From positions 1 to 64,000 of IMG/VR virus record IMGVR_UViG_3300050144_000109: 64,000 nt of DNA; one strand, given 5' to 3'. Each line of letters begins with the position of its first letter. Position 1 is the first letter of the stretch. This document shows positions 4,027 to 6,245 of this stretch, in pieces. A model generated the notes under the pieces. The model saw only the letters and a list, made by a program, of their open reading frames with translations, had not been told where the DNA came from and made no database searches. The stretch is from a virus. A program made the position numbers and the translations under genes.

Positions 4027-4287
4027 CTATTTCAGGTGCGCAATTGCAGCCTTGTGGATACTGCAGATGACATTCTTGGCACCCTCTACATAGTAACACA
4101 AGCAAAGTTTCTCGGCTATGTCGATCTTATCGTGAAGGACGGGATCATCAAAATCTTCTGTCTTGTATTCTTCTCGATATTCTGCACCGAGATTATGAGA
4201 AATCATTAGACGGTACGGTCCAGTGGTTGTTGGTTTTGAAGTAGGCGGCACCAATGTGCGAAGTTCAGAAAGGGCTTTGATTTTCAT
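4027..4287 (-). CDS. Small hypothetical protein, paralog of 4820-5053
   Basis: IKALSELRTLV / YRL / DFDDPVLHDKI motifs. Confidence 0.65.
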   Translation of the reverse strand: MKIKALSELRTLVPPTSKPTTTGPYRLMISHNLGAEYREEYKTEDFDDPVLHDKIDIAEKLCLCYYVEGAKNVICSIHKAAIAHLK

Positions 4288-4292
4288 TGGAC

Positions 4293-4823
4293 TTACCTCA
4301 TGTGGATGTTGACTTCATGGTGCTCGTAAACAAAGCGAGTTCCATGCGTGGCGTATAGTTGGCTGATCAGATCAGAACACCTCGATATGCTGAGGCTGGC
4401 TTGAGCAAAGTCTGGGTAAGCTATCATCTCTTCTGTTTTGGTGTTTCTAATGACAGCGGTGATTTTATTCCTTAGCCTCCAGCGAATCCAAGCCACATCA
4501 ACAGCTTGTTCAAAATTCTCTGGTTTTCGGGCGTAGTACGCTCTGAGGTACTTGAGTGGAATCTTGTCGTAGTACAGAGGCACCGGTACAAAACAAAGCG
4601 CCAGTGCGCGACAAAGTGTGATACAGAAAGTATCACTGTCTTTTGGAACGTGGGTGAGTTGGAATACATTACCCGCACGGTTCCAGCGCTTTATGAACTT
4701 AGTCTCCACGTTAACACATTGACCATCTTTAGAAATGGCCAGTGGATGGTAACCTGGGATAGGATGGTACTCTGCGTTGTCGATGGTGGTGATTTCATTC
4801 ATGCCGTTTGGCTCCTTGTTCAA
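4293..4823 (-). CDS. Degenerate NUMOD4-HNH-NUMOD1-like protein (catalytic residues lost)
   Basis: YHPIPGYHPLAISKDG (NUMOD4-like), LCRALALCFVPVP (cf. VHRLVAxAFIPNP), C-terminal NUMOD1-like helix-turn-helix; no HxDGxxxNN. Confidence 0.6.
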   Translation of the reverse strand: MNKEPNGMNEITTIDNAEYHPIPGYHPLAISKDGQCVNVETKFIKRWNRAGNVFQLTHVPKDSDTFCITLCRALALCFVPVPLYYDKIPLKYLRAYYARKPENFEQAVDVAWIRWRLRNKITAVIRNTKTEEMIAYPDFAQASLSISRCSDLISQLYATHGTRFVYEHHEVNIHMR

Positions 4824-5053
4824 TGTTTGAGAATGATGACTCGGTGAGGTTTGTCTTTCACCCTTAAGTTTTGCATTTTACTCAGCAGTATAGGATCGTC
4901 TGCATCGCTCGCAGCATATACCAGAGCCTCTGTAGCGTCCACCAAACGGTAGGAAGCTACAGAGGGACTCTTTGGTTGAAATGATGGCTTAAAACGAGTT
5001 TTAGAGACGATCCTGCCAAGCTCTTGAAACGACTTGACAGCATGTGTTTTCAT
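4820..5053 (-). CDS. Small hypothetical protein, paralog of 4027-4287
   Basis: VKSFQELGRIV / YRL / DADDPILLSKM; stop overlaps the next start. Confidence 0.65.
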   Translation of the reverse strand: MKTHAVKSFQELGRIVSKTRFKPSFQPKSPSVASYRLVDATEALVYAASDADDPILLSKMQNLRVKDKPHRVIILKH

Positions 5054-5075
5054 AACGAACCTTTTGAAATTGACT

Positions 5076-5578
5076 ACTCAGTTTTACAAAGAGTGTGGTC
5101 ACGGAGGTGACCAGTTATGTGAGGCCTATTCGTCTTCCTCTGGGTCAGACTGCTAGACCTCTGCTAACAGATGTTTTGGTTATTTCTTTTTACTCATTCA
5201 AGCGTGTAGCGGTAGGGGAGCCCAAACTCCCCGATAGCGACCACACCGTCTGCACGTTTGAAAAGAAATAACTTCCACACGTTAAGAATCATTGCTTGGA
5301 TGTTCAAAGGGGTAGTCGTTCACAGGGACTTGTTGGTCCCTTGCCACTCCAAACGAAACAAAGCTGAAGCAATGATTCAAATACAAAACACTTGTGTCAA
5401 TTGGATTCACTGATCGTTCACCTCAATTTCCTTAATAAATACAATAACTTATAACTATTACAGAAAAATCCTGTAATAGCTGCTTGACAGTTATTTAAAG
5501 ATCACATTCGTTCCTTTAAATTTCCTTAATTACTATAGATATATGAAGTTCTTACAAAACCATTTTGTAAGAACTTCA
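5076..5578 (+). ncRNA. Candidate large structured non-coding RNA (or ssDNA-structured origin)
   Basis: No ORF; at least 9 stems, including 5197-5213/5245-5262, 5286-5297/5367-5378 and 5544-5559/5563-5578; G-U pairs favour the + strand. Confidence 0.5.
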
Positions 5579-5602
5579 CTTAGAGTACAAAAAGTCAATA
5601 TT

Positions 5603-6166
5603 TTACGGATCTATTGGTGTGCCTCGGAGCAACTTGGCTGCGTAATTGCCAGACGAAGATCTCATGAAATCTATACCGTTTAAGTCGTCGTGGTAGTTCC
5701 CTGACCCCGGTATTAGTATTCCGCTCTGGTGTAGACCATACCTGAATGCGCCTTGAGGAACGATGCTGTGAGGGTGCTTATGTGGTCTGAAAGCAACTGC
5801 ACTTAAACGGAAAAACACATCACCATTAACATCAATTGGTTTTGGATAAGATGCACCAGATTTTGTTCTGAAGAATGCTTTGAAGTCTCTCAATAAAGCA
5901 AAAGCTGAGTTACGCACAGGGGTTGATGGTGCATAATTAAGGAATGCATGATTGGGACGTTTTTTCATTTCACCGACCATAGCGGAGTAATCCAAGATGT
6001 TGGTAGGCGTGATGATGTTTTGGAAACGCCACCTATCGGAAATTTCTTGCAGAAGTGTGTTGTAGACATAAACACATGCAAACATCGTGTCGTCTATATA
6101 ACGTTTCTCATCGACAGTCGGGTGAATCGGAAGAATGACTGGGTCGTAGTAATGGTATTGTTGCAT
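5603..6166 (-). CDS. TnpB (IS605 OrfB)-derived protein, N-terminal WED/REC part only, no RuvC (~187 aa)
   Basis: PIHPT..E...I..T.F..C.YVYN.LL; MKKRPNHAFLNYAPS..VRNS...L.RDFKAFFR..SGASYPK; IDFMRSSSGNY; ends before the RuvC-I GIDxG motif. Start ATG 6166 with GGAG RBS. Confidence 0.75.
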   Translation of the reverse strand: MQQYHYYDPVILPIHPTVDEKRYIDDTMFACVYVYNTLLQEISDRWRFQNIITPTNILDYSAMVGEMKKRPNHAFLNYAPSTPVRNSAFALLRDFKAFFRTKSGASYPKPIDVNGDVFFRLSAVAFRPHKHPHSIVPQGAFRYGLHQSGILIPGSGNYHDDLNGIDFMRSSSGNYAAKLLRGTPIDP

Positions 6167-6182
6167 TTGCAATCGCTCCAGT

Positions 6183-6245
6183 GGTGGTTGAGGGTAATCT
6201 GAACTGTACTCACTGAAATGATATATAGTCAAAGAAACTTGGAAT
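6183..6245 (-). promoter_or_regulatory. Early-type promoter and CAACCAC leader of the TnpB-like gene
   Basis: Minus strand ATTCCAAGTTTCTTTGACTATATATCAT matches the other promoters; CTCAACCACC at 6183-6192. Confidence 0.55.

Follow-up and report, generated by a model that had tools for sequence, protein, structure and literature searches.

An uncultured phiKZ-like jumbo phage encodes a protein that corresponds to the WED+REC recognition lobe of TnpB, standing alone. Judged by its sequence, this 'half-TnpB' is a domesticated nucleic-acid-binding protein, not fresh debris, and the new point here appears to be that selection has retained the recognition lobe by itself. To our knowledge, the bilobed fold is retained in all known TnpB domestications (Cas12, Fanzor, TldR and sigma-associated forms). 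Half-TnpB is very probably functional. The explanation that we consider best for the locus as a whole, and to which we give about an even chance, is an accessory cassette in which half-TnpB serves as a non-cutting regulator or ribonucleoprotein together with a spacer RNA or a DNA motif. The window analysed is a stretch of 64,000 nt, positions 1 to 64,000 of IMG/VR record IMGVR_UViG_3300050144_000109, and the full record contig is 148 kb.

Results

The four minus-strand open reading frames described in an earlier sequence-only reading (4027-4287, 4293-4823, 4820-5053 and 5603-6232) were confirmed, with probable true starts at 4802 for the HNH-like gene and 6166 for half-TnpB, in agreement with the source's gene calls (P0008, P0005). 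Read along the minus strand, they encode half-TnpB (5603-6166; 187 aa, pI 9.1), a basic orphan protein (4820-5053; 77 aa, pI 10.1), a NUMOD4/HNH_3-like protein (4293-4802; 169 aa) and a further protein of 86 aa (4027-4287). The half-TnpB frame is open upstream to a TTG at 6232, and this extension overlaps a promoter-like motif. When a position weight matrix built from 13 intergenic copies of that motif was scanned over the 148-kb contig, all 20 hits scoring above 12 lay in minus orientation and none in plus. The 42-nt copy at 6212-6253 (minus strand), 46 nt 5' of the ATG at 6166, is weak (15.9 versus 33-51 for most other copies). The next copy, at 3925-3966 (minus strand), is strong (44.5); it abuts a 19-bp hairpin at 3965-4015, 11 nt past the stop of the 86-aa gene, and begins the next unit. 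Between these two motifs, the scan found none in the gap 5054-5602.

In jumbo phages, an early-promoter motif can be found bioinformatically (PMC7598289). The cassette is probably an early-transcribed accessory unit, and the hairpin at 3965-4015 is probably its end. In the most likely mechanism, transcription would run from the motif at 6253 through to this hairpin, and the resulting transcript would include the folded spacer of approximately 0.5 kb, in the same orientation as the half-TnpB gene and straight behind it. Two features of the layout count against the best explanation. The promoter copy before half-TnpB is weak, and a perfect hairpin of punctuation or terminator type (5544-5578; 16 bp, 3-nt loop), located 24 nt past the half-TnpB stop codon, resembles the punctuation with which this phage commonly closes its genes; it could stop transcription ahead of the spacer. 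The contig contains 20 such long perfect hairpins, mostly directly past genes.

The identity of half-TnpB is well defined by profile comparison. Its family profile aligns across the whole family length with residues 7-177 of ISDra2 TnpB (E = 6e-13), and the product of 5603-6166, in which the N-terminal WED+REC lobe of TnpB is present, also matches phrog_506 (4e-8). The match to NF040570 (2.7e-5) covers model positions 5-100 only and reaches 20.6-23.6 bits, where the cut-off is 100. The top Foldseek matches are the TnpB structures 8h1j, 8exa and 8ex9, the last of which has the WED+REC lobe alone resolved; the AF2 model of half-TnpB is of low confidence (pLDDT 54), a point against the best explanation. 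In ISDra2 TnpB, WED comprises residues 1-12 and 117-176, REC residues 13-116, and RuvC begins at residue 185 (PMC10097598). Half-TnpB ends at approximately ISDra2 residue 177 and thus lacks RuvC with its D-E-D triad. Profile searches for TnpB and TNB that ignored stop codons revealed no RuvC or TNB remnant downstream of the gene or elsewhere in the 148-kb contig, and the TNB/zinc-ribbon domain (PF07282) had no match in the whole contig at E <= 10. No TnpA/Y1 transposase was found in the contig, in which the gene and the adjoining gap are single-copy and transposon ends are absent.

The truncated form is conserved. A homologue with 33% identity (P0002, 184 aa) has the same architecture, and its identity is even across the lobe (33/99 positions in REC and 25/69 in the C-terminal WED part); three close variants (P0001, P0006 and P0007) are each intact at 187 aa with 7-11 substitutions. 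We take half-TnpB to be domesticated because it is single-copy and immobile and because its truncated length is kept in this second lineage and in the three variants. The contrary view, that the 187-aa frame is a dead IS200/IS605 remnant and the gap its rotted RuvC half plus a transposon end, appears scarcely credible. It can point to the combined extent of 187 aa and 549 nt, which approximates a full tnpB gene, and to database clusters of 170-194-aa 'transposase fragments' that resemble half-TnpB. However, the stop-reading profile search finds nothing outside model positions 5-100, a homologue at 33% identity retains the short form and shows constraint along the entire protein, four variants are intact, a promoter-like motif of its own precedes the gene, and there is no TnpA. 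A decayed RuvC half within the gap was also sought by six-frame reading and by TnpB and TNB profiles through stops, and nothing was found.

The conserved positions of half-TnpB include an invariant block, S103-T104-x-V-R107-N108, which aligns to the TAM-contact positions K76, F77 and Q80 of ISDra2 TnpB. These three residues are replaced by S, T and R, and S83 of half-TnpB aligns to S56 of ISDra2.

The spacer at 5054-5602 (549 nt) is a mosaic of punctuation hairpins and a duplicated hairpin/RBS unit, plus two inverted stem-loops of approximately 93 nt and a third domain. The sequence-only reading had singled it out for its size and its structure. No other part of the 148-kb contig runs as long without an ORF of at least 60 aa (the sole larger gap, 57824-58387, contains a 113-aa ORF), and on either strand its predicted fold is far more stable than that of shuffled sequence, with z-scores of -6.5 (minus) and -7.5 (plus). 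An AT-rich segment at 5414-5575 (minus strand) contains a direct repeat (5414-5481 versus 5508-5575; 65% identity over 68 nt, E = 5e-5) with a hairpin at 5455-5479 inside, and each repeat unit consists of a hairpin, a shared 12-nt motif and a Shine-Dalgarno/start-like site. An AT-rich block of 34% GC adjoins the two large stem-loops, modules A (5286-5378; 93 nt) and B (5179-5272; 94 nt). Each has a perfect 12-bp closing stem. The modules lie 13 nt apart as inverted paralogues, B being a diverged copy in which the plus strand resembles the minus strand of A (z 4.6), and three of the nine inner pairs that they share are changed on both sides with pairing kept. The two perfect long-range stems and these compensatory changes argue for selection on structure in modules A and B, not decay.

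Strand preference differs between the modules. Fold z-scores on the minus and plus strands are -3.7 and -3.1 for module A, -5.0 and -7.4 for module B, which is better on plus, and -5.1 and -1.35 for module C (5096-5168, minus strand), which folds well only on minus and comprises a branched stem-loop and a 7-bp GC hairpin with a T-rich tail (5096-5113) picked up as terminator-like in a scan. For modules C and D the gene strand gives the better fold. The earlier statement that G-U pairs favour the strand opposite the TnpB-like gene is true only of the module at 5179-5272, and has to be withdrawn for two other modules and the whole gap, which are better on the gene strand. Overall, the spacer folds slightly better on the gene strand, with both strands about equal (15 versus 14 G-U pairs in the strand comparison), and the closing stems are perfectly Watson-Crick and therefore carry no strand information. 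This lack of strand information counts against the best explanation, as does the arrangement of A and B, whose opposite orientation and the better fold of B on plus would fit a DNA-level or orientation-free element as well as one RNA.

Such an element, in which the spacer core would be a foldback or inverted-repeat site (origin, recombination or packaging) or a MITE-like relic, maybe bound by one of the flanking DNA-binding proteins, would also suit the close inverted placement of A and B with their perfect Watson-Crick closing stems, the near-equal folding of the two strands and the 34% GC block beside them. We nevertheless consider it highly improbable, given that the modules are not repeated elsewhere in the contig, that no iteron-like array was found and that good folding of modules C and D is confined to the gene strand.

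Searches for known RNAs and small genes in the spacer gave little. The whole of Rfam 15 yielded only generic miRNA-precursor hairpin matches far below gathering scores, and ARAGORN found no tRNA or tmRNA in the spacer. For a group I or II intron, an omega-RNA, HEARO or another known RNA, Rfam gave no match in the gap at E <= 10. The spacer is a candidate, no more, for a classical omega-RNA. Guide-like matches of the gap elsewhere in the contig are limited to chance-level 13-14-mers, which counts against the best explanation. A 42-aa ORF (5282-5410, minus strand) that begins with GTG behind a good Shine-Dalgarno sequence overlaps module A and is candidate coding sequence only, with a non-discriminating codon score of 0.035. 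None of the small ORFs of the gap, this one included, is called in the public protein collection, and their codon scores are likewise non-discriminating.

For the 169-aa protein, the evidence points weakly to a worn-out, homing-endonuclease-like protein of NUMOD4/HNH_3 type. It matches PHROG HNH families at E 0.017-0.05 (phrog_17657 in three of three family members, phrog_59 in two of three), its ESM Atlas leads are NUMOD4/HNH_3 (NUMOD4 lead score 0.93), and it reaches a structural TM of 0.45-0.49 against Atlas HNH_3 clusters. However, an HNH motif is not detectable and the most conserved part is the C-terminal third. PF13392 (HNH_3) gave no Pfam match at E <= 1 in three family members, a contig-wide search was empty at the gene, and a profile search left the protein unmatched by the NUMOD4 module (PF07463). 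Alignment by hhalign to a genuine HNH_3 enzyme from a relative (G004) is not significant (E = 0.057), and its best register, equally not significant, places the motif's first histidine opposite a leucine. The AF2 model is poor (pLDDT 40) and unusable for fold search, and PDB sequence matches to WD40 designs were set aside as repeat-summation artefacts. Hence, the earlier description of two nuclease derivatives that lack catalytic parts stands for half-TnpB, which keeps the WED+REC lobe without RuvC or TNB, whereas the label 'HNH-like, dead' is weakly borne out at most.

The 33%-identical half-TnpB homologue and a 65%-identical homologue of the HNH-like protein are each on a 36,009-bp Logan contig, presumably one and the same. 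Two more distant relatives found via terminase (G003 and G004; 226 and 272 kb) lack both genes and the whole module, so the co-occurrence of the two genes, which the sequence-only reading had put forward as a check, is seen on what is presumably one divergent 36-kb contig and fails in these two genomes. No related locus for half-TnpB, the HNH-like protein or the virion protein was found among the viral or metagenome contigs searched, and tblastn and blastn found nothing in described phages.

The sequence-only reading had joined the four genes and the RNA into one system, which is not supported beyond neighbourhood. That one module unites half-TnpB with the spacer RNA, the HNH-like protein and both small proteins is quite improbable, even though all parts lie between two successive promoter-like motifs with none in between and two of the genes have homologues on a 36,009-bp contig and are both missing in G003 and G004. 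The 77-aa protein has no homologue besides itself among 5.8 billion proteins and shares no BLASTP alignment with the 86-aa protein even at E 100, the HNH-like label is weakly founded, divergence is much faster in one of the shared genes than in the other (33% versus 65% identity), and with two lineages only, shared presence amounts to synteny of an accessory region. It is likewise improbable that the HNH-like gene and the two small genes are parts of one functional system and more than co-transcribed neighbours.

Discussion

What remains of the proposed RNA-associated DNA-binding or regulatory module is a nuclease-free TnpB derivative adjoining a strongly folded spacer, shorn of the four-gene system, and an RNA-associated or DNA-binding role for half-TnpB is our best guess. 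In the best explanation, half-TnpB would bind a structured part of the spacer RNA via its WED barrel or, alternatively, a short DNA motif via the conserved TAM-reading helix, and would work without cutting, as a regulator or ribonucleoprotein. That the spacer RNA is its partner is a tentative proposition, held with less than even confidence. The guide-RNA scaffold of TnpB and TldR is gripped chiefly by RuvC acting with WED (PMC10097598; 10.64898/2026.09.22.753285), and a half-TnpB without RuvC is missing most of this scaffold-holding surface, which counts against the best explanation.

In a rival view, the gene and the spacer are chance neighbours: half-TnpB alone would be a small sequence-specific dsDNA binder, a TAM-reader turned transcription factor or competitor, and the spacer only punctuation, a long 5' leader and wrecked small-gene cassettes. 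TAM recognition by TnpB requires WED+REC alone (PMC10097598) and scaffold RNA binding depends on RuvC (PMC10097598; 10.64898/2026.09.22.753285); the TAM-helix equivalent is the most conserved block in the half-TnpB family. Long perfect post-gene hairpins are common in this phage, the gap carries both the duplicated hairpin/RBS unit and the 42-aa ORF behind a good RBS, and the side of the structural block on which the locus lies varies between relatives. Yet the two perfect 12-bp stems and the compensatory A/B changes indicate that structure is selected, and no ORF-free stretch in 148 kb is longer than the spacer. We regard this view as unlikely, though far from negligible.

Should the best explanation hold in its RNA form, the RuvC-less lobe and an approximately 0.5-kb folded transcript would constitute a nuclease-free ribonucleoprotein, a new TnpB-derived RNA-protein class adopted by giant phages, with a possible use, for example, in RNA-directed or RNA-scaffolded DNA binding in early infection; we rate this as unlikely. 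A retained recognition lobe would show that the WED+REC half is useful by itself, as a short-DNA-motif reader or an RNA clamp, and at 187 aa it would offer a natural scaffold for studies of TAM and RNA recognition without a nuclease. Should the spacer prove to be the partner, the locus offers an accessible example of a new phage RNP; failing that, it illustrates cleanly how, in an accessory region of a phage, two nucleases of mobile elements have been cut down to binding proteins.

The closest known system is IS200/IS605 TnpB with its omega-RNA (ISDra2; PDB 8H1J, 8EXA, 8EX9 and 8BF8; PMC10097598), to which half-TnpB is homologous in WED+REC over ISDra2 residues 7-177. The phage locus, too, has a long structured sequence immediately 3' of its gene, which would be read on the gene strand. 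Unlike that system, the phage locus is single-copy and lacks RuvC, TNB, the D-E-D triad, TnpA and transposon ends; no Rfam family matches the sequence behind the gene, and other residues occupy the TAM-contact positions. TldR (bioRxiv 10.1101/2023.11.30.569447) is similar as a TnpB derivative that lost cleavage, was kept by phage or host and has a possible guide RNA downstream. However, TldR retains a degenerate RuvC that with WED holds a 97-nt scaffold (10.64898/2026.09.22.753285), whereas half-TnpB is missing the entire RuvC lobe. The short guide of TldR is complementary to a promoter beside a TAM; the phage locus has no guide match and no internal target within the contig. The exapted inactivated TnpBs of the Altae-Tran/Koonin census (PMC10691335) are comparable in that they too descend from tnpB, have become immobile, carry a long 3' region and are suspected of acting in regulation; in the sections of that census drawn on here, catalytic sites are inactivated or rearranged and loss of a whole nuclease lobe is not mentioned. 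The 169-aa protein, in turn, resembles free-standing NUMOD4/HNH_3 phage homing endonucleases (PHIKZ179-type, I-HmuI-like) in its weak PHROG HNH matches and nearest ESM Atlas clusters, and differs from them in being unmatched by the Pfam HNH_3 and NUMOD4 profiles.

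Results

The phage genome is represented by an IMG/VR record of 148,450 bp (CheckV completeness 55%), the first 64 kb of which form the window. Because a neighbouring virion protein (8117-9472) is only 28-34% identical to the best described relatives, phiKZ-like jumbo phages of Burkholderia, Ralstonia, Xanthomonas and Pseudomonas, we place the phage, on sequence evidence, in a deep and undescribed phiKZ-like lineage. Four minus-strand ORFs lie at 4027-6232, interrupted by a 549-nt gap (5054-5602). The gene before the gap probably starts at 6166 and encodes 187 aa, as in an identical public gene call (P0005), and behind the gap follow genes of 77 aa (4820-5053), 169 aa (4293-4802, start 4802 as in the public call P0008 from the same phage) and 86 aa (4027-4287).

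The 187-aa product matches transposase and TnpB models in their N-terminal part only: phrog_506 (4e-8), NF040570 (2.7e-5, model positions 5-100 of 389) and IS200_TnpB (4.3e-5). A profile of its small family matches residues 7-177 of ISDra2 TnpB along the full length of the profile (E 6e-13). ISDra2 TnpB consists of WED (1-12 and 117-176), REC (13-116) and, from residue 185, RuvC with D191, E278 and D361 (PMC10097598). Since the profile spans 7-177 and RuvC begins at 185, the phage protein corresponds exactly to the WED+REC lobe, ending at the domain boundary. Fold matches of its AF2 model (pLDDT 54, low confidence) are headed by TnpB structures (8h1j, 8exa, 8ex9, 8bf8, 8iaz; E 4e-6 to 4e-4), among them 8ex9, an ISDra2 conformation in which RuvC is unresolved. 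No RuvC, TNB or Y1-transposase signal was found downstream of the gene or elsewhere in the contig, also when stops were read through, and the nuclease-less TnpB proposed in the sequence-only reading is thereby borne out.

Is this half-TnpB a relic or a maintained gene? Among 1.8 billion representatives, exhaustively searched with phmmer, the only matches were its own cluster, a 169-aa TnpB-like fragment and P0002, a homologue of 184 aa that aligns end to end at 33% identity, spread evenly along the protein (REC 33/99, C-terminal part of WED 25/69). Other datasets yield three close variants, each 187 aa long with 7-11 mostly conservative substitutions. That the same truncated length is kept at 33% identity suggests purifying selection. 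The invariant residues S83, S103, T104 and R107 align to S56, K76, F77 and Q80 of ISDra2, which contact the TAM (PMC10097598); as they occupy these positions, the DNA-reading helix is conserved inside the family yet altered relative to TnpB.

The evidence on the 169-aa protein, earlier read as a dead HNH, is divided. All three family members weakly match PHROG HNH endonuclease families (E 0.017-0.05), and in the ESM Atlas the protein falls among NUMOD4/HNH_3 clusters, including a PHIKZ179-type cluster (score 0.93, structure TM 0.45-0.49), but the Pfam HNH_3 and NUMOD4 profiles are silent, and comparison by hhalign with an authentic HNH_3 enzyme from the 272-kb relative described below aligns only the pre-motif helix, without significance. 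The protein is likely a homing-endonuclease derivative without the HNH motif; its C-terminal third is its most conserved part. The 272-kb relative encodes a true HNH_3 homing endonuclease of 264 aa (L016:1270-2064; PF13392, 41.5 bits), and none is present in the window's own contig.

The gap is, as proposed, strongly structured and the contig's largest stretch free of ORFs of at least 60 aa; the single larger gap contains a 113-aa ORF. The minus strand folds at -169 kcal/mol (z -6.5) and the plus strand at -159 kcal/mol (z -7.5), and neither an Rfam family nor a tRNA matches the spacer. The evidence on the strand is mixed. The suggested G-U preference for the strand opposite the half-TnpB gene holds for module B, which favours plus, but not overall: G-U counts are 15 vs 14, the gene strand is preferred by modules C and D as well as by the gap as a whole, and module A shows no preference. 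Two further gaps fold at z of about -6 to -7. The one at 57824-58387, which folds as strongly as the spacer, contains an uncalled ORF of 113 aa on the plus strand (about 57964-58305) and, on the minus strand, a weak copy of the promoter motif (57916-57957); the other, 292 nt long and outside the window (contig 69554-69845), combines a hairpin of 15 bp with a weak copy of that motif and shares the spacer's punctuation grammar.

Starting 24 nt past the half-TnpB stop codon, a perfect 16-bp hairpin opens the spacer. The contig has 20 such long perfect hairpins. Most of them stand at the ends of genes, and TATG, the core of phiKZ late promoters (PMC7598289), often comes next, which suggests terminator-promoter junctions. 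TATG follows within a few bases at 28022-28049 and 45890-45917 in the window, and the same pattern recurs at contig 69610-69647, 85672-85709, 92323-92355, 105746-105785 and 135316-135343. An AT-rich direct repeat in the spacer has units of hairpin, motif and Shine-Dalgarno/start, the second copy heading a candidate 42-aa ORF. Modules A (5286-5378) and B (5179-5272), each about 93 nt, are inverted, diverged copies (z 4.6 inverted vs 1.0 direct); their 12-bp closing stems are both perfect despite different sequences, and 3 of 9 shared inner pairs have changed on both sides with pairing kept. Module C (5096-5168, minus) folds well on that strand only. In the minus-strand MFE structure a 9-bp helix (5058-5066 with 5588-5596) closes the whole spacer, joining sequence just past the half-TnpB stop to the ribosome-binding region of the 77-aa gene; it could be a translational switch, or chance.

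A 42-nt motif occurs in about 20 copies in the contig, every one in minus orientation upstream of minus-strand genes (in the window, for example, 1945-1986, 3925-3966, 28443-28484, 31039-31080, 37281-37322, 46494-46535, 51465-51506, 57916-57957 and 62906-62947). In jumbo phages that have RNA polymerases of their own, bioinformatically findable motifs of this kind precede early operons (PMC7598289), and the motif probably represents the early promoter class of this phage, read by the virion RNA polymerase. A weak copy (6212-6253, minus, score 15.9) lies 46 nt before the half-TnpB ATG at 6166; a 19-bp hairpin (3965-4015) follows the 86-aa gene, and directly after it comes a strong copy (3925-3966, minus, score 44.5). 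Since the contig-wide scan placed no copy inside the gap, the simplest transcription unit would run from the promoter through half-TnpB, the spacer and the three genes to the hairpin.

Co-occurrence of the half-TnpB and HNH-like genes probably extends to one other lineage and fails in two relatives. P0009, 65% identical to the HNH-like protein, and P0002 are both Logan singletons, each with a single contig of 36,009 bp, presumably one and the same. Two relatives found by way of their terminase (43% identity; one of 226 kb, the other complete at 272 kb) have neither gene, nor any TnpB-like match. Both relatives share synteny over the structural block 8117-13147, but not on the accessory side. 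Among 5.8 billion proteins the 77-aa protein has no homologue other than itself, and it shows no similarity to the 86-aa protein. Given the presumed P0002/P0009 linkage, the two relatives without both genes and the orphan 77-aa protein, these data speak for an accessory region that is syntenic between two lineages, which falls short of a demonstrated functional system.

Discussion

In known TnpB derivatives the guide scaffold is held in large part by RuvC helices (PMC10097598; 10.64898/2026.09.22.753285). TldRs keep the bilobed fold with RuvC disabled (10.64898/2026.09.22.753285), and a 2023 census of exapted TnpBs likewise describes a retained bilobed fold with a disabled RuvC (PMC10691335). 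The phage half-TnpB comprises the WED+REC lobe alone. No conserved TnpB derivative lacking the entire nuclease lobe turned up in the literature searched.
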